From Podarcis liolepis (lineage: Eukaryota), in NCBI GenBank assembly GCA_965112155.1, contig OZ218101.1: a stretch of 64,000 bases of DNA. One strand, written 5' to 3'. Position numbers and translations under genes: made by a program. The notes beneath the pieces were generated by a model. The model saw nothing but the letters and a program-made list of their open reading frames with translations, was not told where the DNA came from and did not search any database. Of the stretch, positions 668-41,700 are shown piece by piece. The stretch's first letter is position 1. Each line of letters begins with the position of its first letter.

Positions 668-3600
668 GTGAGTTTGTATGCAAAATGGCCTTGATACCCA
701 GTGAACAACCCCCCACTTCCCAAAAAAGAAACCCAGTTGTGAAGGTAGAAAACTAGCAGTGGCAACTACCCAGTGTCATATGTACAATGACCTGAAAGTT
801 GGACAGAAGTTGTGGGTGTATGCTTGTTCTCCGAGAGTCAGGAGCACACTGCACAAGATTTCTATCCCCTTGAGACCAAGGTAGCTAACCTGGAGAAAAT
901 GAAAGAGGCCTTTGAGACATAGTTGAGGTGCCTTATTATCAGGGTCCTCTTCTGTTATGGGGAATGAGGGTCTATGGGGAAGGAGGTTGTCATTCTTAGA
1001 AAGAGGGATGTGATTCCTTTTAATAATAATAATAATAATAAATTTATTATTTGTACCCTGCCCATCTGGCTGGGTTTCACCAGCAACTCTGGGCGGCTTC
1101 CAACAAAGATTAAAAATACATTAAAATGTCACACATTAAAAACTTCCCTGAACAGAGCTGCCTTCAGATGTCTTCTAAATGCCAGGTAGTTGTTTATCTC
1201 TTTGACATCTGATGGGAGAGCGTTCCACAGGGCAGGCACCACTACCGAGAAAGCCCTCTGCCTGGTTCCCTGTAGCTTTGCTTCTCGCAGTGAGGGAACC
1301 ACCAGAAGGCCCTCGGTGCTGGACCTCAGCGTCTGGGCAGAATGATGGGGGTGGAGACGCTCCTTCAGGTATACTGGGCCGAGGCCGTTTAGGGCTTTAA
1401 AAGTCAACACCAACACTTCGAAGGGATCCATTCCTTTATGATGAACCAATATCCTGTATTTTATAAGATCTGACAATAAAATGTGAGTCTCTTGCAATAG
1501 ACCTGTTGCTGCTAGTATTCAAGAAAGAAAACAGACATTTGAAGAGTTCCTAGAAGAGCAGATACAACTAGAAGAACAACGGCTGAGCCAAAAAGGAAAT
1601 AAAAAGGTTAGTAATTAGAAATGCTTCTTGCAGTGATATATAAAATGTATAACAACTGTGAGAATAAGTTCCTGCTTCACTTATGTTGGTTTCACTCTTG
1701 TAGGTGCAACACATGAAATTCCAGACTTCCCAAAAAGTTTTATATGAGTACTTTGATAGAGCAAGCAAAACACATAAATAGAAATATAAGAAAATGAAAA
1801 GGTCTTTTTGTTTTTGTTTTTTAGGACTCTGAAAAATCAACATTCCAGACACCAGTTGCAAAACGACCCTTTCTAAAACGAGGTGAAGGTTTAAGGAGGT
1901 TTGCTGGTGCAAAATCCAAAGCAGCTAATCAGAAAGAAAGCAAAGTAACTCATCTTAATGCATCAGAAGTAAAAAACTCAGTTAAAGCAGACAAGCCACA
2001 GCTTCACCGGAAAACAGCCACTTCAAATAAAGAACAAACTTCTGACAATTTTGTGTCTAAAAATGGTAATCAGAATGGTAAAATGAAGAAAGCTCCAGCT
2101 CTTCCCGCTCGAAAAACAGCAGTGCTCAGAACTTGTGCTGGGAAAGCCATCCCTTCATCTACAAGACGAAATCCCAGTGAAAGGAAATCTGGACAACTCA
2201 GAGAGTTTGCCAAGTCAGAAATAAATGGTGAAAGAGAAAAGAATAAAGATAATATAATGGCACTTGCAAAGCTGGATGAAATTGGCTGTGAGTTACCCAA
2301 AGAAAAGTATGCGCAACCAGTACAAGTGACCAAACATCTTACAAATTCCTCTGAAAAAGACCTAGACCTCTCTTTTGAACTTTCTTTCCAGAAGAAATTG
2401 GAAAACTGGGATACTGAAAAGGAAAAAGAGGAAATTGAATTGGATGAATTTTTGTTTCTAGAGCAGGCTGCTGATGAAATCTCCTTTGCCAGCAATTCCT
2501 CACTTATTGTAAGGATCTTGGATCAAGGCCAGCAGATTTCTACAGGGCGCAGACTGTCTTCTACTCCCATTAAATCAAGGCAGCAACAACAGCAGATAAA
2601 TGTGCAGGACGCTACAGCTGTAGAGAACAGAAATGGAGACGCATGTGTTTCCCAACCAGCAAACAATGAGAAGGACAGAGGGATGATCACTGAATCCCAG
2701 GCACCTGAAATGCTGAAGGATCATCAAAATAAAATTGACAGTAAAATACTTCAAGCTTTCCCCACTGAGTTTCAAGGTTTTGGAGACACTGAGTGGGACG
2801 AAGATAAATCTGGTGAAAGTAGTGATGTGACTTTGGGGTCTGAGGAGGAATTTGAGACTACCATAAAGCCTGCTGAGAGAGCTAAAAAGTTTGATTTGAG
2901 TCATAGAGGTGACAGTCCTGAATTTTCAGAGTACAAAGAAGGCACAAATAGAGATGCCAGCCTTGGCTTACTGGAAAAAAATGTTGGTAGTATCCAGTGT
3001 AGCAAGATAAACAAGGGTTCTGAATTTCAAACTGTGTGTTGTGCAAATGGAAATCAAGTTGATTTTGATGACGAAACATCGTGGACGGACTTTGACGAGA
3101 ATGGGAGTCGGTGTACCCAAGTACCAAATGATGACTTGGTTATTAAAGGACCATTGTCCCCTGACTGTTCAGCTACAAATGAGGCATTTTTTCCAGATAA
3201 AAGGATAAAGAGGAAGATTGCTGTAGCAAAGAAAGGGGATGTTCTGCTCAGGCAAAGTGTGGCAGACAATGAGGCAATTGCACCCCCCGCAACAGATCTG
3301 ATGCTGAAGCTCTTTCCTTCTCTGAGGCCCAAACAGAAGGTAGAGGCACAGCAAAGACATGATGCCAAACCCAATGTGTCTCAGGAAGAATCAGGAGGTA
3401 AGCAAGAGGGATAAATGAGTATTGAGCGTAATAATCAGTCCCATAAATCTCCTCAATAGCAGTAGTAATCTTCAAAGCCTATATCCCTCTGTCCTGCTCT
3501 TCAGCTTGCATTCTCAGGGTTTTAGATTCTTAAACAAATTGCCAAGCAATTTATTGGAGCCAATTTGCTTTTCAGACTGGTTTCTATTGTAATGGCTACA

Positions 3601-6600
3601 ATTTTATGTGTTTTAAGCCCATTTATTTCATCCAGTCTTACAGCAACTCGCTCATAGTTTCAGTCTGGATATGTATGTGTAAAAGCTGACCTGGAAGTCA
3701 GCAGAGTTGGCTTTAAAACTCCTATAAAGATGGCAAAGATCAGAGAGGGCGGGAAACTGGTAAAACGTTACCACACAACAGTATGGTGCATACATTGACA
3801 TTGGTGCATCAAACATTGTGCACCTGTTCTTTGTCAGGAGACACGGCTCGTTCCCAGCTATTGAGAGAGAAACTTGTTGAATTGGAAGTTGAAATCGAAC
3901 GGTTTAGGGAAGAAAATGCGTCCCTCACAAAACTTCGAGAAGAGCGTGAGAAGGCTTTGGAGAAGTTCAGGTAACTTAAAGAGCCTGTCTGATTTCTATC
4001 CTGTTGGTGGGAAGCTGATTTAACCTAGAGCAGGCTTGCCACTTAGGACCCACCTGCCATCTGTGACAGCCCATTCATTTAAAATAAATCCACCCTTTCC
4101 TGTTAAAAAGCTCAAGGTGGCTAACAATGTATAAAAAATAAATAAAACCCACATCACTAGAAGCAGCAAGAAACAAAAAGATAAAAGGCGGCTATTGAAA
4201 ACAAGTGCATATTCTCAAGTGATAAAAACATTTCAATGCAGCTAAGACAGTCTGGTGCAGAAGCTTAAAATGACCCCCCCCCCAAAAAAACACCCCTCTA
4301 ATAAGCAGGAAGGAAGGTTTTAATGAAGTGATGGGAAGAGTTTTCTTTGCGGGGGTCTTTCATAACCTGGGTGGAGGCCACTGAAATGGTTATGGCCTGG
4401 TTCTACTGGGGGCCCTCTTCCGGGTGCCAACTAAGCATAGTTCGGGGGAATGCACAAGAGGGCGTAAGATATTAACAGACGAGTGGGTTCATACAGGACT
4501 AGGTTGCCCTTCAGTTATCCTGGTCCCAAACCATGAAGGGCTTTAAAGTTGCCACCAGCACTTAGAATTGGGACAAGATACAAGTTGGAAGCCAGAGTAG
4601 TTGTTTCAATAAGAGAGTCACATACTCTGGTGAACCACTGAGCTGCCATGTTTTGTACCAGTTACAGGTTTCTGGACTTTCTTAATAATGAGGCCGTATG
4701 CAGAAGGCATAGTAGTCCAGCTGTTCAGCATGTGTTTAAAATGGCATGCAGGACAATGTGCAAGCCAGTGGGACCCATAGCCCAGGGGCAGAATAGTACC
4801 TAGAAATACCATCCCTTAATATTAAATCTCAAAAATACCATCAAATGCCAACAGTGTCCTTCAGCTCTCTATATTGGACAAACAGGCCAAACCTTACGCC
4901 AAAGAATAAACGGACATAAATCTGACATCAAGAATCACAAAACAGAGAAACCAGTAGGAGAACACTTCAATCTCCCAGGACATTCTATACAAGATCTCAA
5001 AGTAGCTGTTTTACTACAAAGGAATTTCAGAAATAGACTGGAAAGAGAAGCTGCTGAATTGCAACTCATTACCAAACTTAAAACCATGGAGAGACCTGGT
5101 CTGAACAAAGACATTGGATTCTTACCTCATTATACATGACTAAGCCATTTCTCACCTTCTCACCCCTTGCCTTTTCCTATAAGACCTATTACAGTCGTTA
5201 AGAGTCGTCAACAGGCTCATCTCAGCTATCTGCCAATCTCCCATTCCCACCACCCTTCTGAGTAATACCCCTCCCCACCTTCTCACTATATAGAAGGGTC
5301 TGGCAACTTCTGTTTCAGTGTATCTGAAGAAGTGTGCATGCACACGAAAGCTCATACCAAGAACTAACTTAGTTGGTCTTTAAGGTGCTACTGGAAGGAA
5401 TTTTTTTATCTCAAAAATACTGACATCTAGATAACAGTTGATAACAATGCAATTGACTAATTCAGCTGCAGTAAAAGATGCCAGAGACAATGCATCATAC
5501 AGGGCTAATATAATTTGGTAGTTTGCAAACAATAAACTAAGTCATGCAGCTATTTATACTGGGCAGCTGGAAATTACCGATTTTGCTAACCAAGAAATAT
5601 TGTGGAATTTCTGAAGATATGGCCTGTTGGTTTACTGGGATTTATGTAGAGAGCCAAGAAGGATGACGTAAGAAAGCATGCGGTTTGTTAAAGCAACAGT
5701 GCCTGGTGGTTGTGTTCTAGGAGAGCTTTTTAAAAATATACTATATGGGGTAGCTTGTGGAGCTAACAGTCCTAAGTTATAATGTTATCAGTAAAACATA
5801 CAATTTTTCAAGGAGCAGCATTTTTTGCTGTTCTGAAATAATTACTGTAAATTTTCAGGAAAGAAGTTGCTGACTTTGAACAACAGAAAGCCAAAGAGCT
5901 TACCCGAATAGAAGAATTTAAAAAAGAAGAAACAAGAAAGCTGCAAAAAGAACGTAAAGTTTTTGAGAAGTATGCACAGGCAGCTAGAGCTATTCCAGAT
6001 AAAAAGGAACGGGATGAAATTCAGGTATGGATGCAGGGGAAAACCTATATGGTTACTTTGATTGGGATCAGATTTACTGGTTGTTGATTTAAGGTGAAGA
6101 ATGTCCACTGAGTAATTTTATTACAGGTATTGCATTTATTACTGCAGTGTAAAGTGATTTGTCTTTTTCTTCAGTTTGTGTATTTTAACATAGCAGCAAA
6201 TGACCTGCTTGCATGTTGTTTTCTCAAGGCTTTGAAGCAGCAAATGGCAACCTTGCAGGAAGATTTAAAAAGAAGAGAGACAAAATGGTCAACAACCCAC
6301 ATTCGTCTTAGAGACCAGATAGAGGCCTTAACTAGGGAGAATGTGCAACTACGGGAAGAGATCAAAATTATGGAACGATTTCGTTTGGATGCTTGGAAGA
6401 GAAAAGAGGCATCTATAAACAAGAAGAAAACTGGCTGTGATAAGAAAGCAGAGTCGGCAGTAAGGTTTCTTTCCCCCTTCTATCTCTTTTCAGGCGTAAA
6501 AGTGGTAGTGTGGTTAATGTGTCACACTCAGACTGGGAGACCCGGGTTCAAATCCCCACTCAGTCATGAAGCTCACACTTTCTCTGCCTAACCTATTTCC

Positions 6601-9600
6601 CAGGGTTGCTGTAACAATAAGAGTTGCGTGGAGGAAAAACACACATGAAACTTGCCTGAAAAGGATGAATTAAGGAAACACAAACTGCCCAGGCACCTTA
6701 GGTTGCACAAATTTGACTTACATTTGCGTACTTGTCATTATTGAGAGTCAGGCTGATGTTTTTGAGCCCTGGCCTAGGCAAACTCCGGCCCTCCAGATGT
6801 TTAGGACTACAGTTCCCATCATCCCTAGCTAACAGGACCAGTGGACAGGATGAGAATTGTAGTCCCAAACATCTGGAGGGCTGGAGTTTTCTATGCCTGC
6901 ATTAGTCTGTCTCTTTTGGTAGGAGAGTTTTGTGTGTGCAGCTGTTAAGGTAGAATCATTAATGTGGAACTGCTGGGACAGAACTTTTCAACTTTTTTTG
7001 ATTTGACAAGCTGCCTTCATTTCTAAAGTGTTTGAACGAGTATCCGGAGTCATGTGAGCACACTTCCTCCTCACTAGTGCTCCCCCAATCCAAATCTGCT
7101 CTGGAGGATTCCTCAACTGTTCAGGGCACATGTTGGCAGGTTGTGGGGAAAAGAGTGAGAAGTCCACTTGGGTAGGTGGCCACTGTTGGCTTTCACTCTA
7201 TATTATATATTACTGAACAGCTCTCAGGCACACAGTTCCAAGTATGAATAAGCAAAAGTGCATACATGTTGTAAACAGGTTCCTACCATATTGACTTTAG
7301 TTTTATGTTGCAAATAGCTTTGTGAACATACCGTATTTTTCGCCCTATAGGACGCATTTCCCCCCCTCCAAAAATGAAGGGGAAATGTGTGTGCGTCCTA
7401 TGGGGCGAATACAGGCTTTTGCTGAAGCCTGGAGAGTGAGAGGAGTCGGTGCGCACCGACCCCTCTCGCTCTCCAGGCTTCAGGAAGCCCTGCGCAACCC
7501 TCGGGAGACCGACGCGACTTAGCGCCGGGCTCCCAAGGGTTGCGCAGAGCTGCCTGCGCTCCCGGGCTTCCCGGAGAGCTGCCTGCATTCTGAAGCCTGG
7601 GGTGCGCTGAAGAGCGCGTCCGGGCTTCGCGCAGCTCTCCGCAAGCCTGGGGAGACCGGCGCGGCTCCCTAGGCTTGCGGATAGCAGGCTGTTCTGGGGT
7701 CGGGGGAAGCTCGGGCTTCCCCCGCGCCAGTCCTGTGCCTGGGGGGGGGGGGGAAATAATTCCCCCCTTTATCCCCCCCCCCCAGAAAAACTAGGTGCGT
7801 CCTATGGGGCAAAAAATACAGTAATTTTGAAAAGTGGTGTATAAATATGGTAAAATAATCACCTTTTACTTTTTGGGGAAAAGGTTTGTGTTCCTGAATA
7901 TTATCATTGTAGCATTTTAACAACAACAAAAAATCTCAATATGCCCCTGCTTTACATCCCCCCCTAGCACTCTCCAGCTATATTGCAAAAAAACCAGACT
8001 CTGCCTTCAATTCCTCAAGCAGAAAAGAGCAGCAAGATGAATGGCAAAAGTGATCTGTCATCAGAAGGTAACTATACTTAGGATACAGTACCATTTCTAG
8101 TAAGCAGCAATATGACATTTTATATGCAAGTCTGCATGTTACATACCTTGTCATTCTAACACTTCAGCTACCTCCAACCCCCCCCCCACACTACTGGTAT
8201 GTTTTACAGTAATTTACCCAAGTAGCAGTAATGCCACTGATAATAAAAAAAATTCCTTCCAGTAGCACCTTAAAGACCAACTAAGTTAGTTCTTGGTATG
8301 AGCTTTCGTGTGCATGCACACTTCTTCAGATACACTGAAATATTTAGTGTGGGCCTCAAATTAAATAAGAGGTAGCAGAAAATTTGAGAGGGATGTACCT
8401 ACTTTCTCCCCATGTCCTAGGAAATATAAAATATTAGAATGATATTTTTATTATTGTTTGAAATAGGAAGACCCTGTGCAAAATTTAAACTAGCAGCTGC
8501 ACCTGAAGAGAGTTGCTTGAACAATGTGGCAGTGACTTTTGAAGATTCCTCCAAAGCATTTATGGCTGTAAGTAAAGTACAAGAATGTTGGCTCCTGGTT
8601 TCATAAGGCAGCCTAGGGCCTTGGATAGAAATGTTTAAGCTGTGTAATAGATAGCCAAAACTGACCCAAGGATGATTGCAGCATCAAGGAAGTAAGAAAA
8701 CGCTGGGGAGGTTGCTATGTTAAATCTCCTCTTGCTCTTCTTGACTGTTTGTGCTGCTCCTTTGGTTGAGAAATAACCCAATTTTTATGGATTAAATTTA
8801 TATTCAGTATAAAGGTATGAAAGGTTATAGATATTAAATTCTAGGGAAAACAGTGTTACATTCTCATTTAAAGAATGTAGGATACTGTAGCTGTATAATA
8901 GATTTTAGTCCCGTTTTGCTATTGGCATCTTTTCTCTGCAGAACAGGAATAGAGCATGCCTTCAGGGGTAGTATTTTGTGGGATGAGCACAGTCCAGGAA
9001 ATTTAGGTTTGCACATTTAAACCATGGCAGACACATCATTGTGGAAGGGGTCCTGTAATGATAGTCTGAAGACCATTTCAGTAGAGGATTTCAGTTTACG
9101 TGAATGAAGCTTGTCTTGTAGAGAAGTTCCCAGATTGTCACCATTTAATGCCCCCAGTAATATGATTTGCCTCTCAAGACAAATTTATACAGTTTTGCCC
9201 ACCTCCCATTTCAGAATTTACCTGGTAATGGAACTGTTGAATCGTCACCATCACTAAGTCCTGATTCATCAGACAGTGAAGACGAAATAGAGAGTGAAGC
9301 CAATCATCCTGATGGAAAGGTAGTAAGTTGTTGTTTTTTCTAGCACATGGGTGGGGGAACCTGTGGCTCTCCAGATGCTGCGGGACTCAAACTTCCTTTG
9401 GGGCCAGCCAACATGGTCAAGTTCCATGGGAATTGTCATCAAAATCAGGAGCGCAGCAGGTTTCCCATCCCTGCTCTGAAGCGATTCCAGAAAGTAATAC
9501 CGGGAGAACATTGCTATGTAAAGGAAATGCTTGCTCTTTCTTGCCTCAGAAAGGATGGCCAGTTCCATACCTGCACCACCTATGAAAGTGCAGTGCTGCT

Positions 9601-12600
9601 GCTGCTGCTGCTAGGCTTGGGAGCCTTTTTGGATCTGAACTAGATGTTTATGCCATTCTGCCTAATTTTCAGAATGGAGCCCAAAGAATGCAGGGAAAAA
9701 TAAGAGGTGGTAACTATTTATGTATTTTTCATATTCATATACCACTTAACTACCATCGTATCTAAGTACTGTACAAGAAATAAAAAATCAGAAAAGGTGA
9801 AAATTGGTTAAAACTGTAAAACCAGACTTAAAGTGTCCTGGAATAAAAGTATGGAAGTTCAGGGAGCTTCACCAAATTGGGCCTGCAATACTAAATGCAT
9901 GGCTTCCATCTTTGCCACAGTAGACCCACTAAAAATGACTCTGCCAAAGACCGCAGGGATTAGGCGGTCCTGTCAAGGCCCTTGTACAGTGCTACCTCGC
10001 AAGACGAATGCCTCGCAAGACGAAAAACGAGCAAGACGAAAGAGTTTTCCGTTTTTTGAGTCGTTCCGCAAGACGAATTTCCCTATGGGCTTGCTTCGCA
10101 AGATGAAACGTCTTGCGAGTTCTTGTGAGTTTGTTTCCTTTTTCTTATAGCCGCTAAGCCGCTAATAGCCGTGCTTCGCAAGACGAAAAAACCGCAAGAC
10201 GAAGAGACTCGCGGAACAGATTAATTTCGTCTTGCGAGGCACCACTGTAAATAAAAACAGTCTTCTCAATACAGTTTTGCTGAATTTCATGCTGAATTTA
10301 GGTCCAGTCCCTATTATGCAGAGGAAACCAATGTACTTTTATACAGCCAAACCAAAGCCTACTTTTATACAGTCTTGCAGCTGTTTCCCATGCATTTGCA
10401 TAATACTCAAGGCCGGGTCATGCTCAGCCACAGTTAATGGTTATGCCCCACAGCAAATGTGGGAATGAACCTCAGGCTTGTATGATCTTTCTCAGTCCAC
10501 AGAGAAACGCTTGGTGCTTATGTGAAGGCCTAACTCGAGAGTGATCTGCCTACAGAAAGGGGGTGGGATGGCTCTGGATCCATTCCAGTCTGGCTTCCGC
10601 GCTGGTCATGGGACCGAGACGGCTCTGGTTGCCCTAACAGACGATCTCCGCAAGCAGCTGGATCGTGGCAGGTCGGGGCTGCTGATTCTTCTAGACCTGT
10701 CAGCAGCCTTCGACATGGTCGATCATGAACTCCTGGACCACCGCCTTGCCGAAGTGGGGATCCAGGGCACAGTCCTTCAATGGCTGCGCTCGTTTCTCTC
10801 TGGCCAGGGACAGAGGGTGGCGCTTGGGGGGAGGGGGAATTGTCATCCTTGGTGTGTGGAGTGCCTCAGGGTGCGATACTTTCCCTGATGCTTTTTAACA
10901 TCTTTATGCGCCCCCTCGCCCAGCTTGTCCAGCGTTTTGGGCTGGGCTGCCATCAGTATGCCAATGACACCCAACTCTATCTGTTGATGGATGGCCATCC
11001 TGACTCGGCCCCAGACACACTGACCAGATGTTTGGAAGCTGTGGCTGGATGGTTACGTGGGAGCCAGTTGAAGTTAATTCCTTCAAAGACAGAGGTCCTC
11101 TGGCTGGGACGGGACAATATGGGATTGAGGGGGCAACTCCCATCTCTTGCGGGGGTGCAATTAGTGCCAGCACCGTCCGTTAAGGGTTTGGGTGTAATCT
11201 TCGATACCTCCCTCTCCATGGAGGTGCAGATTACAGCTATAACAAAGGCGGCATTTTTTCATCTCCGCCAAGCTAAGCAGTTGGCTCCTTACCTCTCTCG
11301 CCCTGACCTAGCCACTGTGATCCACGCGACGGTCACCTCCAGACTGGATTATTGTAACTCACTCTACGTGGGGCTGCCCTTGAGACTGACCCAGAAACTC
11401 CAGCGGGTGCAGAATGCCGCGGCGAGACTCCTTACGGGGTCTTCGCTGCGAGATCACATTCATCCGGTGCTATACCAGCTGCACTGGCTCCCGGTAGAGT
11501 ACAGGATCAGGTTTAAGGTGCTGGTTTTAATCTTTAAAGCCCTATACGGCCTAGGACCCTCATAGCTACGCGACCGCCTCTCCTGGTATGTCCTACAGAG
11601 GAACTTATGGTCTTCAAACAAAAACATCCTGAAGGTCCCAGGCCACAGAGAGGTTAGGCTGGCCTCAACTAGAGCCAGGGCTTTTTCGGCTGTGGCTCCA
11701 ATCTGGTGGAACGCTGTCACAAGAGACTAGGGCCCTGCGGGACTTGACATCTTTCTGCAGGGCCTGCAAGACAGAGCTGTTCCACCAGGCCTTTGGTCAG
11801 GGCACAGCCTGACTCCCTCCTTTGGCAATCTTCACAGAACTTTAGCTTAATGGTTGCCATCAATTTGATTTTAATTAATTTTTATAATGAAATGTTTTTA
11901 GAATGTTGCACTATTTTATTGTTGTTAGCCGCCCTGAGCCCAGCTTCCGCTGGGGAGGGTGGGATATAAATAAAATTTATTATTATTATTCTTTTGAGTG
12001 TGTGTGGCCCACTCATGTAAGCTGCAATCAAATAAATAAGAAAAATCCTACATCCAATTTCTGGGCCTCTGGATTTGTGAAGCATGCCCCATACTCTTGA
12101 ATTTCTAAGGGCACCGTATTTAGAAGTGGGAGGGATACTATCCCTTATTATCAGATAAGCTCTGTTTGGGTTTGTTTGTTTTGGCCTCTTCCCCTTTCTT
12201 ATTCTCTGCTTGGCTTAGTCTATAGAAATTCAGTCAGAATTGTTACGATATATGCTTTTATTTCACTTCTTTCAGGTTGAAAAGATTTTAAAAAATGGAT
12301 CCCACCTGATTATTTTCCCCAATGGCACACGGAAAGAAGTGAGCTGTGATGGGAAGACTACAACTGTAACCTTCTTTAATGGGGATGTAAAGCAAGTTCT
12401 GGATGATCGGAGAGTGGTATGTATCCAGTAAGAAGTATGTGCCATTCAGATATGGACAGAAGGTTCTATTCATGCTAAATCTGTTACCTCTTCTCAACAG
12501 ATATACTATTATGCAGATGCCAAGACTACGCACACCACCTACCCCACAGGCTTAGAGGTCCTACATTTCTCAAATGGACAAATAGGTAAACGGAGACCTG

Positions 12601-14406
12601 GATGTCTTTCTTGTAGCCGTTTAGGGAAGTTTTTAATATTTAATGCTGCATTGTTTTTAACACTCGACTGGGAGCCGCCCACAGTGGCTGGTGAAACTCA
12701 GCCAATGGGTGGGGTATTAATAATAAATTAATATTTTTTTTATTGTACTGCTCTATAAATTGCTGTGTATTTGTGTGTATTAAATTGCAAGAACTACCGT
12801 ATTTTTCGCCCTATAGGATGCAATTTTTCCCATTCAAAAATGAAGGGAAAATGTGTGTGCGTCTTATGGGGCGAATGCAGGCTTTTGCTGAAGCCTGGAG
12901 AGCGAGAGGCGTCTGTGCGCACCGACCCCTCTCGCTCTCCAGGCTTCAGGAAGCTATCCGCAAGCCTTGCGCACCCGGGGGAGTTCCCACGGGCTCGCAA
13001 GGCTTGCGGGCAACAGCCTGTTCTGGGGGCTGGGGAAGCTCAGGCTTCCCCCGCCTCCAGCCCCAGCAAGCAAGCTCCAGGAGCGATGGCGAGGTTGCAG
13101 CCCCGAGGCTAAAAACGAAGCCAGGACAGCGAGCGGGATAATTCCCCCCCCTTTATTCCCCCCCCCAAATAAGTGCATCCTATGGGCTGGTGCGTCCTAT
13201 AGGGCAAAAAATACGGTACTTACAAGGCGTATCAGTATTCTGACGTGAGGTATGCTCGTTCATTCCTTGCAGAAAAGCATTTTCCAGATGGAAGGAAAGA
13301 GATTGTATTCCCTGACCAAACCATTAAGAATGTGTACACGGATGGGCGAGAAATGACCATTTTCCCTGATGGCACCATTGTCCGCACACAGCAGTAAGAT
13401 TTATTTTCATAAAACTATTTTAAGTGTTAAGTTTGGCCTGCATTTACTGCAGCCATATAGAAAAAGTAAAGGTAAAGGTATCCCTGACCATTAGGTCCAA
13501 TCGCAGACAACTCTGGGGTTGTGGCACTCATCTCGCTCTATAGGCCGAGGGAGCTGGCGTTTGTCCGCAGACAGCTTCCAGGTCATGGGGCCAGCAGGAC
13601 TAAGCTGCTTCTGGCCAACCAGGGCAGTGCACGGAAATGCTGTTTACCTTCCCGCTGGAGCAGTACCTATTTATCTACTTGCATTTTGACGTGCTTTCAA
13701 ACTGCTAGGTTGGCAAGAGCTGGGACCGAGCAACGGGAGCTCACCCCATCGTGGGGATTCGAACCACCAACCTTCTGATCGGCAAGCCCTAGGCTCTGTG
13801 GTTTAGACCACAGCACCACCCGTGTCCTATATAGAAAAAGTAGTGACTCACATTAAGAATGCCTTTTGAGGAAACAAGACTGTGGAGGAAGAGAAAGGCT
13901 ATCAAGTGCTGACTGTGTTATGACAGTCTTTATGCTACCCTTACCCAGTCTGGCCAGCTGCAGGAGTACAAGATGATAATCTCAGCAATTTAAGAATACT
14001 TCCTGTGTAGGCCAAGATTTGTTGTGCTGAAAGTACACATTGGGAAGAACCCAAATGATATGAGGCAGAGATGCTGCTTAAAATTACGTTTTAAGTAGGC
14101 AGGCTGTAGTAGGTATGGCAGTTAGAACAATTAGCTGCATTCTTAATTGTACCTCCCAGCAGAATTTAGCTATAACATTACATTGGTTTTAAAGGTTGCC
14201 TTTCTATTTTAAGGGATGGAAGTAAGGTTATCGAGTTCAGTAATGGCCAGCAAGAAGTGCATACAGCCCATTTCAAGAGACGGGAGTATCCAGACGGTAC
14301 CGTTAAGACAATGTATGCCGATGGACGCCAAGAAACGCAGTATGCTTCGGGTCGAGTTAGAGTTAAAGATAAGGATGGTGAGATTATTGTGGACACCATC
14401 CTCTAA
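529..14406 (+). CDS. CENPJ: Centromere protein J / CPAP (SAS-4), 3' portion; 13 coding exons, 5' exons upstream of window
   Basis: Spliced frame is continuous through 529-667,1501-1606,1825-3397,3838-3970,5859-6024,6229-6459,7968-8067,8467-8567,9215-9319,12276-12416,12501-12585,13273-13393,14214-14406(TAA). Contains PN2-3 motifs [16 protein letters not shown] and [14 protein letters not shown], coiled coils, and the C-terminal TCP/G-box beta-hairpin repeats (FPNGT, FPDG, YPDGT). Confidence 0.97.
1021..1418 (-). mobile_element. L2/CR1-clade LINE 3' fragment
   Basis: ORF2 C-terminus ([36 protein letters not shown]) plus (TTA)n tail; same family as 62745-63362. Confidence 0.85.
1501..1606 (+). 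CDS. CENPJ: CENPJ exon, PN2-3 ([26 protein letters not shown])
   Basis: caatag / gttag sites; conserved CPAP motif. Confidence 0.95.
1825..3397 (+). CDS. CENPJ: CENPJ large exon ([14 protein letters not shown]...[12 protein letters not shown])
   Basis: 1573-nt open exon containing ORF 2053..3414; ttttag / G|gtaag. Confidence 0.97.
3838..3970 (+). CDS. CENPJ: CENPJ coiled-coil exon ([16 protein letters not shown])
   Basis: gtcag / AG|gtaac. Confidence 0.95.
4839..5407 (+). mobile_element. 5'-truncated Penelope-like retroelement (GIY-YIG endonuclease C-terminus + pLTR)
   Basis: Frame 4840-5139 reads [30 protein letters not shown]...[10 protein letters not shown]...GLNKD*; 13-bp TSD atctcaaaaatac at 4826-4838 and 5408-5420. 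Confidence 0.92.
5320..5357 (+). ncRNA. Minimal type I hammerhead ribozyme motif in Penelope pLTR
   Basis: GTAT-CTGAAGA-A-GTGTGCATGCACAC-GAAA-GC-TC-ATAC: conserved core, palindromic stem II, 4-bp stem I, AGCT palindromic stem III. Confidence 0.8.
5859..6024 (+). CDS. CENPJ: CENPJ exon ([10 protein letters not shown]...DEIQ)
   Basis: tttcag / CAG|gtatg. Confidence 0.95.
6229..6459 (+). CDS. CENPJ: CENPJ exon ([20 protein letters not shown])
   Basis: ctcaag / GCA|gtaag. Confidence 0.93.
6500..6620 (+). mobile_element. Old MIR-like SINE fragment
   Basis: A-box-like gtagtgtggtt, B-box gggttcaaatcc. Confidence 0.6.
6770..6899. mobile_element. hAT MITE, same family as 63128
   Basis: ggactacagttcccatc...gaattgtagtcc hairpin body. 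Confidence 0.8.
7331..7821. mobile_element. TcMar (Tc2-like) MITE with GC-rich internal palindromes
   Basis: TA TSD, TIR CCGTATTTTTCGCCCTATAGGACGCA. Confidence 0.85.
7968..8067 (+). CDS. CENPJ: CENPJ linker exon ([10 protein letters not shown]...)
   Basis: ccctag / G|gtaac; open frame, phases match neighbours. Confidence 0.8.
8245..8340 (-). mobile_element. Solo Penelope pLTR fragment with hammerhead motif (8296-8333)
   Basis: Reverse complement of 5313-5407, identical by eye. Confidence 0.88.
8467..8567 (+). CDS. CENPJ: CENPJ linker exon ([10 protein letters not shown]...)
   Basis: aatag / GCT|gtaagt; phases match. Confidence 0.8.
9215..9319 (+). CDS. CENPJ: CENPJ exon, start of TCP domain (...[12 protein letters not shown])
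   Basis: tttcag acceptor; tandem donor gtagtaagt. Confidence 0.9.
9987..10247. mobile_element. TcMar/Tigger-like MITE (GCAAGACGAA subrepeats)
   Basis: TA-CAGTG...CACTG-TA ends. Confidence 0.85.
10570..11990 (+). mobile_element. 5'-truncated L2-clade LINE with disrupted RT
   Basis: [30 protein letters not shown] (YADD mutated), SRLDYCNSL; frameshift near 10835; (TTA)n tail. Confidence 0.93.
12276..12416 (+). CDS. CENPJ: CENPJ TCP exon (VEKILKNG...FPNGTRKEV)
   Basis: ttcag / GTG|gtatgt. Confidence 0.96.
12501..12585 (+). CDS. CENPJ: CENPJ TCP exon ([15 protein letters not shown]...GQI)
   Basis: caacag / G|gtaaa. Confidence 0.96.
12797..13216. mobile_element. TcMar (Tc2-like) MITE, same family as 7331
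   Basis: TA TSD, CCGTATTTTT TIRs. Confidence 0.87.
13273..13393 (+). CDS. CENPJ: CENPJ TCP exon ([17 protein letters not shown])
   Basis: ttgcag / CA|gtaag. Confidence 0.96.
13469..13828 (-). mobile_element. Sauria SINE, near full length
   Basis: tRNA-derived head with B-box GGTTCGAATCC, (ACCTTT)n tail, TSD atatagaaaaagta at 13455-68 and 13829-42. Confidence 0.92.
14214..14406 (+). CDS. CENPJ: CENPJ last coding exon ([11 protein letters not shown]...DTIL*)
   Basis: tttaag acceptor; TAA stop 14404-14406. Confidence 0.96.
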
Positions 14407-32700: not shown

Positions 32701-35700
32701 GGTACAAAAAACCACAAAGTTCATAAACCATAACCAGGGCTGCATTCCCTGCATCCTTTCTTCCAGATTAATTTGCTCCTAGTATGCTTGTAGCTGAACT
32801 CCCACCATTATCTTGAGCATGTTGTCCAAACAGAACATGGAGCACTTAGCTTGAATGTTCCCTTCGCAGAGTAGGCAGGAGCAGGCCAGAAAGAGTTGGT
32901 TACTTTCTTACACCATTTATGTCAGGTAAAGGGATGAAAGGACCATAAAAATCTGGTCCATCCCAGTTCTGCATGAGGATAGGACCAAGTCTTTCCTGTC
33001 CCCATACATGTGTATGTCTATCTATTTTATCTATTAATCCATCCATGTAAAATATTTTTCTGTCTTTAACTTTCAAGCACTGGCATGCCAGCTACCCACA
33101 ATCGGAAGTGGCCAACATGCTGGGTGTCTTGCCACTGGTACACTTTAATCACAAATACAGTAAGTCCCTGGAATGACACAACATTCTGATGACTTTCTGT
33201 GGACCTCAGGGGTTATTTTATGGAAAAAACATGGCACACTGGCAGCAAAGACTCCTTTCTTAGTTTAATCGCTATTTTCATCATCCTGCAGGAGCTGTAG
33301 AATATGTAAAGTTAAGCAACAACAATTGTCAAAAATGAAAAGAACCAAAAAGCATGAAGTGCTCTGACCCAGGCCAAGTGGGAAAAGGAACTTACCTTTT
33401 CAGAATTTGTTCTGATGACATCAAATGCACGTAGAACTTGCTTGGGGACACAACGTGACTAATTCGCACTTGCAGTTCTTTGCTGCAATCTAATTTTGTA
33501 CCTTCAAGCTGTATCGGCTCTTCGTTCCCAGGCTGTAAATTATCTCCATGAGCTTTGAATAGTTCTTCTGGAGTAGGATCCCAAACTTCATGATGTGATT
33601 CGGTAATCATTTTGGTGTCACTGTAGAATTTGGTTTTATTTAGTTTTTTGTTTCATCTGCCAGTATCAGACAAATAGAAGAAGAAATGCCCTCCACAAAA
33701 CATGACCAACAAGTTTTAAACAAAGACCTGGTTGGCATGTTAACATTAAGCCAAACCATGGCTAAGTGTAAACAAGCAAGAGTGATGGTTTACTGTAAAA
33801 AATAAATCACCACAATGTCACACTACCCTTGCTATGCACAAACTTGGGCTTGTGGTGTGATTTGTCTTGCTCCAAAATGAACCATGAACTGTGAACCAAG
33901 GTTTGTTTCTTGGCTTAGTGTTCAGTTTGTTTGGAATGAGACAAAATCGTGAGTCTAGGTTTGTACACAACACTAAGCCAAGCCATTTAAGCCCTACCTG
34001 AGATGACATTACATACACTTCACTGAGAAATATTGGGCTGCTCAAATTCAGAAGTTGCAAAAAGATTATGAGCGTGTTGAAGTTAATGAAGCTGCACACT
34101 CACCTTAATATATAAGATGCCAGACCTTCTTTAACCAAGAGGCTGTTAACACTCCAAGATGCCTTTGGTGGCACACATACACTTTCATAGAGCTCAACAG
34201 ACAGTATATTGTCTTCAGATTTTTCTAGAGGTAGTTGAAAGAGGTTTAAGTTCAAAATGTCAAAGGAAAGAAATTAGCTACGAGTGTTGGGGAAAGGAGG
34301 CGGCATGATGAAGGTCTTAGCTGTGAACCATTTTATTTTACTTCATTATGTTGGGATTTTATTGCTTTTACCTACTGTGATTTTTAATTGCTTTTGCATT
34401 TTGTAAGCTACCTTAAAAAGTTACGTAGAAAGGTGAGGAACAAAGAAAACCAATTATTAAGACCAGAAGGCTCCTTTGAGACAATTACTTAATAAAATGT
34501 AGTGCCTGTGTATTTATGTGACAGATAATTTAAGTCTCTGCATTAAAAAACTGGATTTTTTTTTAAAAAAAGTGTTCTGAAAGCCTCTGATATTTCCAAA
34601 GCTCCATATTCTTACAAATAATTTTATCTCATTTGTCACCAAAATGGTCAGGTGATGTAGGTTAATAGGATACTGTGACTTAAGATTACAGGTAGGTAGC
34701 CGTGTTGGTCTGCCATAGTTGAAACAAAATTAAAAAAAATCCTTCCAGTAGCACCTTAGAGACCAACTAAGTTTGTTATTGGTATGAGCTTTCGTGTGCA
34801 TTTCGTGTATCTGAAGATGTGTGCATGCACACGAAAACTCATACCAATAGCAAACTTAGTTGGTCTCTAAGGTGCCACTGGAAGGAATTTATTTATTTAT
34901 TTTGTGACTTAAGAGTTAGCCAGCATGTTTTATGGCTGAATTCCAAATACCTGCCCCTCCTTCCAACTGGAAAACCATTGACAGGGTTGGGAATAAGCTG
35001 CCCTGGTGTTCTGGCTGGGCATAGCTGAGCACCGAGCTAATCCAATTAGGTAGGGAAAGGGAAATAGTCCTACACCGATGACAAGAGCAGCAAGCAGTCC
35101 TAACAACATTAAGGTACTTATCCCAAGGAGAAATTGAGAATTTCCCTGACAGGCTGGATGGGAGGCACTGTCCCTATCAAGTTGCTGTCCACTGAGTGAG
35201 AATGGATGATTTGATTTTTGAGTCAGCAACTCTATTTGGCTCTCAATTACTGAGTAAGTTACTCAAGACAGGCAAACACTTACCAATAATAAAGCAGAGC
35301 ATACATTTATCTTGAATTAGTTCTTCAAATCTGTCCTTTGATTTACTACTCCATTCATTTGCTCCTTTATTTGGTATGATATGGGCCAGCTTGCACCTGA
35401 TGGCCTAAATTATAAAACATAGCCCAATTTGTTTATTTAGTTTCAATGCCATCGTTCCTTTAATGAAATTTCAGTGTGCTTACACAGGGCTCCCAGCAAT
35501 CTCTAATCTAGGCAACAATTAAGTACGCATCTCCTGTAGTGCTTTCTTGCTATAGCACAACTATTATCGGACCCACTGCTGAGCCGCAGGGTGCCTACCT
35601 TTCGCACAACAGCAACTTGCCCCACTCTTAAAACATGGCACTTGTGTGCAAATTTCTTTGGCTCTGCGTGTGTTGGAGGGGAGATAGATTCTTAGAGAAA

Positions 35701-38700: not shown

Positions 38701-41700
38701 AGAAGCCTCCTTCAATTCCATGTCTCTGGTAGAGGCACCGATCAGTTCAAAGATATAAGCTATGGGGCTAGCATGCTTATATCCAGATTTCATATTACTG
38801 TATCTTAATAAAAACATAGCATTTACATTTTAAAATAAAAAATTGAATTATAAGACATTTATCCACTCTGGAAAGTGGGGAAATAAACTGAACAGATTAA
38901 GAGAAACAGGATGATGGAAAAATGGCAAAAACTGACTTTAGGTCCCTTCCAGTACCACAATTCTATGATTCTCCATTCTCACCCTCACTACACCAAATCT
39001 TTAAAAAAAATATTTAGGTTAGTGGTATTTAACAGTTAGCAGGCTTTAGTCAATTTGTGGCCAATTCTTGTTCTCTGTTATAAAGGAATACAGTCGTACC
39101 TTGGCTCCCGAACAGCTTTAGTATTCAGTTTGAATGTGAAAAATAAAGTGGCTGAAAGCCCAACTGGAGAGAACAATCTAGAATTTTAGTAATTAAGCAT
39201 TTGTAGCTAATCATGCCAGCAGCAGAGAAAAATAAGATGTTGTCATCTTAATCTAGTCTTTATAGCAGACATAACCTCCCCCGACACATAATCACACTCA
39301 CCTAAACTGTGTTTCATGATTTCAAGAGGAATTAGTTTTAATTAAGTACATTTTTTTTAAAATAACCCTATTTTATCTCTAACCCTGAAATGCTCTGTAT
39401 TGCATATACCTTGCCAAGTCCATAAAAACTAAAGCATCTCTGAGAGATACAGGCATGTCACTACTTATTTTGTTTGCTGGCGGTTTCATCAGATCAACAA
39501 TAAGCACACCATCCTCTTCTCTGAAGACTTTCATTAGAACAGCTTTGTTTTTTACCATTTTCAAAAATTCTGTCCTTGCTTTTCTGCTCCAACCTTCAGC
39601 CTATTGCAGGGGGAGAAAGAAGTTCAGAATCCTATCCACCTGCAGACTTTAGGATTTAAATACAGTATCAAGAACTACTAAATACCCAATATGTAACAAA
39701 ACTCAGGACTTAACCACACTGTTATGTACATTGCATGGCATCCAAACACATCAAGACTTTTAAAATAATAATTCAGACACCATACCACACCAATTAATTC
39801 TTTCCAAACTGAACTAGCAATGTTTACTCGTAACTATTCCTTGAATGGGTATTTTGTGCAATCACAAATAGGAATGATCTGTGTAGAAGACAGCTTGAAT
39901 CTTCTAAAACATGGGTAGGCAAACTAAGGCCCGGGGGCCGGATCCGGCCCAATCGCCTTCTAAATCCAGCCTGTAGACAGTCCGGGAATCAGCATGTTTT
40001 TACATGAGTAGAATGTGTCCTTTTATTTAAAATGCATCTTTGGGTTATTTGTGGGGCACAGGAATTCATTCATTTCCCCCTCTCCAAAATATAGTCTGGC
40101 CCCCCACAAGGTCTGAGGGACAGTGGACTGGCCCCCTGCTGAAAAGGTTTGCTGACCACTGTTCTAAAAAGTTAGGCACATTAGGTTATTATCTTTATTG
40201 AGTACAATGTAAGAATTACATCATTACGAAGGAAGGGAAAGCCATCTCAATCAGGAAAAATCAGAATATGAACATTCAATTGTTTCTTTAAAAAAAGATA
40301 TTATCTAACTTCTCTAAGAATGCAGAAGTCCAGACAATATAGTTCTTACTTACTGAATCTTTGGGAACAATGTCCTTCAGGGAGCACTGTAGTGCTAAAT
40401 GATTTATACCACTAAGTTGTGCCTCTATATGTATGTCAGGTTTCTTCACAACCAAGCAAAAGTCTTCAGTCACTATATATTCTAGAGTGATATGTTCTGG
40501 ATTAATGCCAAGGTTATTTGGTACGCTTGATGGCAGAAAGAGAAGATAACAAATATTATTTCTCAATATAAGCTTGGAATAAAATGCTTCAACATCAATA
40601 GGCAGATTTTTTAAGTCTAAAAAGTTTTCTGTTTAAGAGATGCTTTACTGGGAACAACTGAACTGTATTATTCAAAAGAGATCATAAAAAGCAAATCAGC
40701 AAAATATTTCCTATCTGCTCTAATTAAGATAGTTTTATAAGAAGTTGTTTTAGACCAGCTCCAACTATAATCTACTCTGACAACGGCAATTCAAAATAAA
40801 AAAATTCCTTCCAGTAGCACCTTAAAGACCAACTAAGTTAGTTCTTGGTATGAGCTTTCGTGTGCATGCACACTTCTTCAGATACACATGCACACGAAAG
40901 CTCATACCAAGAACTAACTTAGTTGGTCTTTAAGGTGCTACTGGAAGGAATTTTTTTATTTTGACTATGGCAGACCAACACGGCTACCTATCTGTAACGG
41001 CAATTCAGTTAAATGGATCAGATGATGGGACAGAGCTCTGTAATAACCCTTGAGATGTTCAGGAATTGAACCCGAGGTTTTCCAAGTGCAAAATAATCAA
41101 GCTGTTGGGTGGCTCATACAACTGATAACCCCTAGATTAAGACTACTGCAGTATGTTGTACGTGAAGTTAAAAACAATTTGGAAAAGTCAGAACCAAGGG
41201 AAGCCAATGAACTCATCCTGGAGTCATTGGGGTGGGGATGGGGATTTGCAATTTTCTCTCATTACACACCAATGTAGTTCTGCATACATGTCCCCTCAAC
41301 AAGCAGAAACCATGATATTATTTGTGCGTGGCAAACTGACAGGCATGGGACCACCCAATCTGGAATATGAACTGGGGCCTACGTGAAGAAGGCAGGAAAG
41401 GTCTATTTGTAAAATTCCCCTATACCTGGCTTTATGATGGTCTGGCCCTAGTTAAAATATTTTAATCAATAATTGGGTGGGGGAGGAAGAACTGGATTCT
41501 ATGCACAGACCCAGATTACATAATCCATCTACCATGAATGGATGTAGAAGAATCACATGTTCACGGAGGACCTACATGCAAAATTCACATCACCACATGC
41601 AGTTAAGAGATAGCTAGCTTGTGATTTTTTTTATATTTACTGTCTGAACACTATTTGAATCCCATCAGCAATTAACTGAGCAAATTATGCACTCTTATTG

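Follow-up and report, generated by a model that had tools for sequence, protein, structure and literature searches.

Hammerheads conserved in amniote introns are single-copy, are kept across species and have full stems. Minimal hammerhead ribozymes (min-HHRs) of another kind are described in Penelope-like elements (PLEs), where single motifs are reported to be inactive and dimers to cut weakly (Cervera and De la Pena 2014, PMC4209133). The hammerhead of PAc (Poseidon_Ac), a PLE of Anolis carolinensis, is reported to be inactive without the protein of the element and dispensable for insertion in vitro, and in the RNA-seq data described there no reads start or stop at the hammerhead cut site (Frangieh et al. 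2024, PMC11167929). A TATA box plus an Inr inside the pLTR are described for a rotifer element (PMC3846280), and the promoter of Penelope from Drosophila virilis is described as internal and TATA-less (PMC2377424). A Zn-finger-like CX2-5CxxC linker between RT and EN is given as a mark of Neptune/Nematis (Craig et al., PMC8557442). Here we analyse a hammerhead motif located in an intron of CENPJ in a 64,000-nucleotide stretch of DNA from Podarcis liolepis, further referred to as the window.

The 38 bases at 5320–5357 of the plus strand form an intact minimal type I hammerhead motif (Table 1). The sequence reads exactly as given in the initial annotation, with AGCU as stem III, a perfect 14-nt palindrome as stem II and the predicted cut after C5353. 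The core CUGANGA ... GAAA ... UH is intact, helix I falls within the range of 4–5 bp, G10.1-C11.1 closes helix II, an extra base follows position 9, and the remnant of helix III is palindromic. The motif sits in the pLTR of a PLE, 3' of the end of the GIY-YIG ORF. No stem I longer than 4 bp can form, and the stem II palindrome folded as a hairpin yields a stem of only 5 bp with a CAUG loop. The PLE min-HHRs described in PMC4209133 share with this motif type I topology, a helix I of 4 bp, the lack of a real helix III, palindromic positions 15.2–16.2, the extra base between 9 and 10.1, G10.1-C11.1 and the pLTR location, and like it they occur as thousands of dispersed single copies and as pairs on opposite strands; reptiles are among the hosts reported there. 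Unlike the Schistosoma min-HHRs of the same report, with helix II of 7–8 bp, helix II here has 5 bp and is wholly palindromic. The motif is thus of a known kind, a minimal hammerhead of PLE pLTRs; it has all the structural features given for the class needing a dimer or a helper, to which the initial annotation had assigned it (PMC4209133).

A structural descriptor search of the window yielded 4 matches, all of them copies of one repeat, whereas 100 block-wise mononucleotide shuffles gave 0.01 on average. The covariance check proposed in the initial annotation was run as Rfam scans of positions 3000–8000 and 5280–5410, neither of which detected a hammerhead at E<=10.

Table 1. Coordinates of the hammerhead motif, the element carrying it and related features in the window
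Feature	Position	Strand	Comment
CENPJ host intron	3971–5858	+	Flanked by exons 3838–3970 and 5859–6024; predicted from sequence
Target site duplication (TSD), left copy, 13 bp	4826–4838	+	Identical to 5408–5420; the empty-site joint shares 13 letters
5'-truncated Penelope-like element	4839–5407	+	3' end of ORF and pLTR, without tail/ATG
C-terminal GIY-YIG endonuclease fragment of element ORF	4840–5136	+	
TATA-like box and Inr-like TTCAGT	5287–5319	+	TATA-like box at 5287, +1 at A5317; likely pLTR core promoter
Upstream arm	about 5303–5318	+	Predicted partner of hammerhead core
Stem I	GUAU 5320–5323 / AUAC 5354–5357	+	4 bp
Core CUGAAGA	5324–5330	+	Extra A at 5331, between positions 9 and 10.1
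Stem II palindrome	5332–5345	+	14 nt
GAAA; AGCU in place of stem III	5346–5349; 5349–5352	+	Predicted cut after C5353 (5353/5354)
Downstream arm	5377–5396	+	Predicted partner of stem I and core after its transcription
TSD, right copy, 13 bp	5408–5420	+	Perfect match to left copy
Second pLTR copy, antisense to CENPJ	8246–8340	-	In intron 8068–8466
Descriptor match 1	5320–5357	+	
Descriptor match 2	8296–8333	-	
Descriptor match 3	34807–34844	+	
Descriptor match 4	40848–40885	-	

The boundaries of the truncated element (4839–5407) were set by the TSD and the empty site described below. Its sequence is 95–100% identical to copies on many contigs, and Pfam PF01541 matches 4804–5136 with 23.1 bits against the cut-off of 22.6. 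In longer copies of the family RVT_1 and GIY-YIG are encoded in a single ORF (at locus L017, RVT_1 with E 3.8e-12 and GIY-YIG lie within one 700-aa frame). The linker CxxxxCxxC between RT and EN was found in 6 of 6 long ORFs, which points to Neptune/Nematis; the family is probably of the Neptune type (or Nematis) rather than Poseidon and in this linker differs from the Poseidon-type PAc (PMC8557442).

The family has the features of EN+ PLEs: partial tandems, inverted 5' copies, an optional tail of 30–40 bp and a TSD. The inverted 5'-truncated pLTR, the tail, a TSD (8–10 bp there) and TATA plus Inr in the pLTR recur in EN+ Penelope of Adineta vaga; unlike the insertions described for Adineta vaga, short pLTR-only inserts dominate here, with ~16,000 copies (PMC3846280). 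With PAc the family shares the hammerhead in the pLTR, two 3' end points defining an optional tail, an AT-rich target and templates uncut at the hammerhead, whereas the ATG, which in PAc lies in stem II, is here located in the tail, ~60 nt behind the motif (PMC11167929). In tandem copies (L091, L092, L097 and L100) the hammerhead precedes the ORF start: the motif is followed by ~60 nt and then by the tail holding the ATG, which stands ~95 nt behind the motif start and opens a long frame in L091, L097 and L100. In the tandem copy L092 (G000:C16:46832883-46836088) the ORF start is broken by ~190 nt absent from other copies. The CENPJ copy terminates ahead of the ATG-bearing tail and of the element ORF.

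The exact 38-mer occurs 9,879 times in the genome (4,999 + 4,880), its reversed control 0 times, which corresponds to one copy per ~159 kb. Exact copy numbers step up along the pLTR, from 3,761 for an upstream 30-mer (5282–5311, one degenerate position) to 9,879 for the motif and 15,893 for a downstream 30-mer that lies behind the cut site. An intact copy of the motif at 40848–40885 (minus strand) lies between exons of a neighbouring minus-strand Tudor-domain gene and is in sense orientation there. At 40791–40964 and 34723–34903 the family is also represented by two miniature inserts, in which pLTRs are inverted head-to-head and a tail is present on one side only. Both sit in introns of the minus-strand multi-Tudor gene, which we take to be RNF17 from synteny; the insert at 34.7 kb is an older variant, ~91% identical, with AACU replacing AGCU.

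The host gene was recognised by a match of window positions 1825–2100 to solved CENPJ chains (5itz_D, E 3.5e-8) and by Tcp10_C exons on the plus strand at 12219–14403. Joining 7 AG/GT-bounded exons yields 803 codons with zero stops. These three lines agree that the hammerhead motif is in sense orientation relative to CENPJ, as had been claimed. Fragments of another reverse transcriptase (RVT_1) lie within a CENPJ intron at 10526–11565 (plus strand). Short hairpin-forming repeats with sub-threshold Rfam miRNA matches, likely miniature DNA-transposon copies, are located at 6782–6892 and 7329–7830.

Contigs from 4 DNA runs of related organisms were compared over positions 3800–6500. In organisms C and F one contig each joins 4825 to 5408; these contigs skip 582 bases, share 13 letters at the joint and have the same depth as the flanks, and represent the empty site. 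Contigs of organism B, and of another sample of organism A, enter the element from both flanks, as in a filled site. The flanks diverge at only ~1–2% of positions in all four runs. Given the empty sites in C and F and this low divergence, the insertion is recent and lineage-restricted and is no conserved part of CENPJ. The conservation at the orthologous CENPJ site expected of a domesticated intronic ribozyme was not observed, the site being empty in 2 of the 4 runs. Like the conserved amniote intronic hammerheads, the motif lies in sense orientation in an intron of its host gene; unlike them, it is part of a repeat that is young and missing at this site in two close relatives. The copy number together with the empty sites in relatives makes it very probable that the hammerhead was brought into the CENPJ intron by a recent PLE insertion and is a silent passenger spliced out with the intron.

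The 5' ends of copies were mapped by ungapped extension at the first 100 of the 15,893 listed places of the downstream 30-mer, which is anchored downstream of the cut site. This gave 101 ends at 67 loci, all from the start of contig C1; where copies carry internal deletions, a few ends are placed wrongly by this procedure, and ends from the two arms of one inverted insert do not count as independent. Among these places 44 of the 101 ends fall at 5316–5323, compared with 5.4 expected if the 73 ends in 5251–5359 were spread evenly, and 28 lie at or before 5250. The tail is present in 52 of the 101 copies. Loose contig ends also cluster at 5318–5320 in all 4 runs. No end of the 101 lies at the cut site (5354) and one lies at 5356, which rules out cleavage as the origin of the 5' ends among the places listed; no copy with a 3' end at 5353 was found among the loose ends listed from the 4 runs. 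The whole motif spanning the cut site is present in 81 of the 101 copies from these places. Hence their templates were copied into the genome uncut at the hammerhead, or were re-joined.

The Inr-like TTCAGT was called with the Inr consensus, and its A5317 is located 30 nt from the TATA-like box. Since the ends pile up ~30 nt behind this box, we propose that the pile-up at 5316–5323 points to a transcription start at the 5' edge of the motif. A less probable, still tenable reading is that the pile-up marks a splice acceptor (AG 5317–5318) or stems from template switching at short repeats (GTGT/ACAC) in the course of inversion. A branch-like CTCAC lies 33 nt upstream, and an intron ending at the 5' end of helix I is described for Penelope of Drosophila virilis (PMC4209133); however, the 44 copies from the listed places share no upstream exon, and the TATA-to-Inr spacing of 30 nt speaks against this reading. 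As for both variants of this reading, 35 of the 44 ends adjoin other element sequence and only 9 adjoin host DNA, but those 9 abut it directly.

The family is near-uniform: among the places listed, 57 of the 81 whole copies are exact, and no compensatory pair was found. In being nearly invariant the family of the CENPJ copy resembles that of D. virilis, in contrast to the heterogeneous families described in the same report (PMC4209133). Core G8 is mutated at least as often (56 copies) as a loop-base U (40 copies), so no selection on the core is visible, and the inserted copies decay with no sign of selection to keep or shed it. A loop variant that breaks the stem II palindrome and keeps the stem is present in 477 copies; the palindrome is therefore not needed for mobility, which rules it out as a required dimer hook in this respect. 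In addition, about 20 divergent motifs resembling minimal hammerheads, with the same core and AGCU and with variable stems, were observed on several contigs of the genome (L102–L121 in G000), apparently older single copies. We chose these 20 by eye for different stem II among the first 100 of 140 matches to a loose pattern (control 2). With kinship ignored, stem I in this eye-picked set has 38 of 80 cells paired compared with 29.4 in shuffled data (reached in 89 of 5000), including two-sided C-G/T-A and G-C/A-T swaps; for stem II the corresponding values, likewise with kinship ignored, are 34 of 80 and 29.6 (624 of 5000). The signal is thus weak for stem I, and stem II is close to shuffled data.

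The predicted fold of the motif depends on where the RNA begins, in models that leave out proteins, kinetics and trans pairing. In RNA starting from 5200, which is pre-mRNA-like, the pairing probability of the core is 0.92 and that of stem I ~0 at all lengths tried. In RNA starting from 5317, the pairing of the core is 0.17–0.19 and that of stem I 0.60–0.86 until the downstream arm appears. The core pairing observed with the downstream arm is reached by 10 of 500 shuffles, and a common variant at 5380 creates a mismatch in this arm. Core pairing by the upstream arm is modestly above shuffles (5–32 of 500), and the accompanying loss of stem I is within the shuffle range (61–280 of 500). According to these models, the upstream arm likely pairs off the core in CENPJ pre-mRNA, leaving the hammerhead misfolded and probably inactive.

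The steps that would connect these observations are as follows. The RNA of the element would start at the TATA/Inr near 5317, with the motif as its first ~37 nt, ahead of the ATG of the ORF. The hammerhead would fold briefly in this RNA, and cutting would require a partner copy or the element protein. Where transcription reads through, as in CENPJ pre-mRNA, the core would be occupied by the upstream arm, so that cutting would be rare. The RNAs copied into the genome would be those uncut at the hammerhead, or re-joined. We consider it rather doubtful that the pLTR goes further and works as a safety switch, in which the hammerhead folds only as the first 37 nt of RNA started at the TATA/Inr while read-through RNA, both host pre-mRNA and the 3' repeat of the element, carries the core-sequestering upstream arm. 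If true, this would explain how 10,000 intact ribozymes are tolerated in introns and why templates are copied uncut. Since the CENPJ copy retains the promoter, carriers of the filled allele could then produce a truncated CENPJ RNA that is capped by the hammerhead.

A cut within an intron need not stop splicing. It is very unlikely that the hammerhead cuts CENPJ pre-mRNA when stem III is contributed in trans by a second PLE RNA or by the PLE protein, which would tie the CENPJ level to PLE activity. The core and the AGCU palindrome are intact, 9,879 identical potential partners exist, and help by dimers and proteins is documented for PLE hammerheads (PMC4209133, PMC11167929). However, the core is predicted to be sequestered in the pre-mRNA context, the insertion is absent from two related organisms, and the copy ends ahead of the ORF, where, if the comparison can be extended across clades, the 172 nt needed for activity of the anole element are located (PMC11167929). 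Moreover, two copies are predicted to cofold via the 14-bp stem II duplex (−30.6 kcal/mol) in preference to the AGCU-linked form, whose score of −13.0 refers to a form with one core, the form with two cores being pseudoknotted and outside the scoring. Neither a special link to CENPJ nor the conditional switch suggested in the initial annotation is supported: the motif has thousands of identical copies, the next gene also has one in sense orientation, the insertion is recent and absent in 2 of the 4 runs, and the core is predicted to be paired away.

The antisense pLTR copy at 8246–8340 is complementary to 5313–5407 over 95 nt with 100% identity, is located 2.8 kb downstream and is predicted to form a duplex of −173 kcal/mol; in the folding model it could also bind the hammerhead motif, a further point against cleavage in CENPJ RNA. 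The inverted pair brackets three CENPJ exons with a total length of 497 nt, not a multiple of 3, so that their skipping yields a frameshift. We regard it as unlikely that the insertion affects CENPJ without cutting, by the duplex, the retained promoter or a cryptic acceptor. By the first route the 95-bp duplex would loop out the three exons and favour dsRNA editing, exon skipping or back-splicing into a circular RNA, in parallel to inverted Alu pairs. The perfect complement 2.8 kb away and the exon map fit this route, but at one copy per 159 kb such inverted pairs must be very common. By the other routes a CENPJ RNA truncated to its C-terminal part would start at the TATA/Inr, or splicing would use the AG at 5317–5318 as a cryptic acceptor; the promoter-like motifs, the pile-up of ends and the TATA plus Inr described in the rotifer pLTR (PMC3846280) are consistent with a promoter.

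As a regulator of CENPJ the hammerhead very likely does not matter, the preferred reading remaining that of a passenger removed with the intron. Against this reading stand the perfect core and the possible transcription of thousands of identical partner RNAs. Xenopus retrozymes, which are tandem hammerhead repeats, are reported to be depleted in introns (bioRxiv 10.64898/2026.07.22.740005); by analogy, intronic motifs such as this one may carry a cost for the host. The pile-up of ends at the 5' edge of the motif, and not at the cut site, lends genomic support to the uncut PLE templates described in vitro (PMC11167929). About 10,000 near-invariant hammerheads, together with filled and empty alleles of an essential gene among closely related organisms, provide a system for testing cutting in vivo and its cost for the host.
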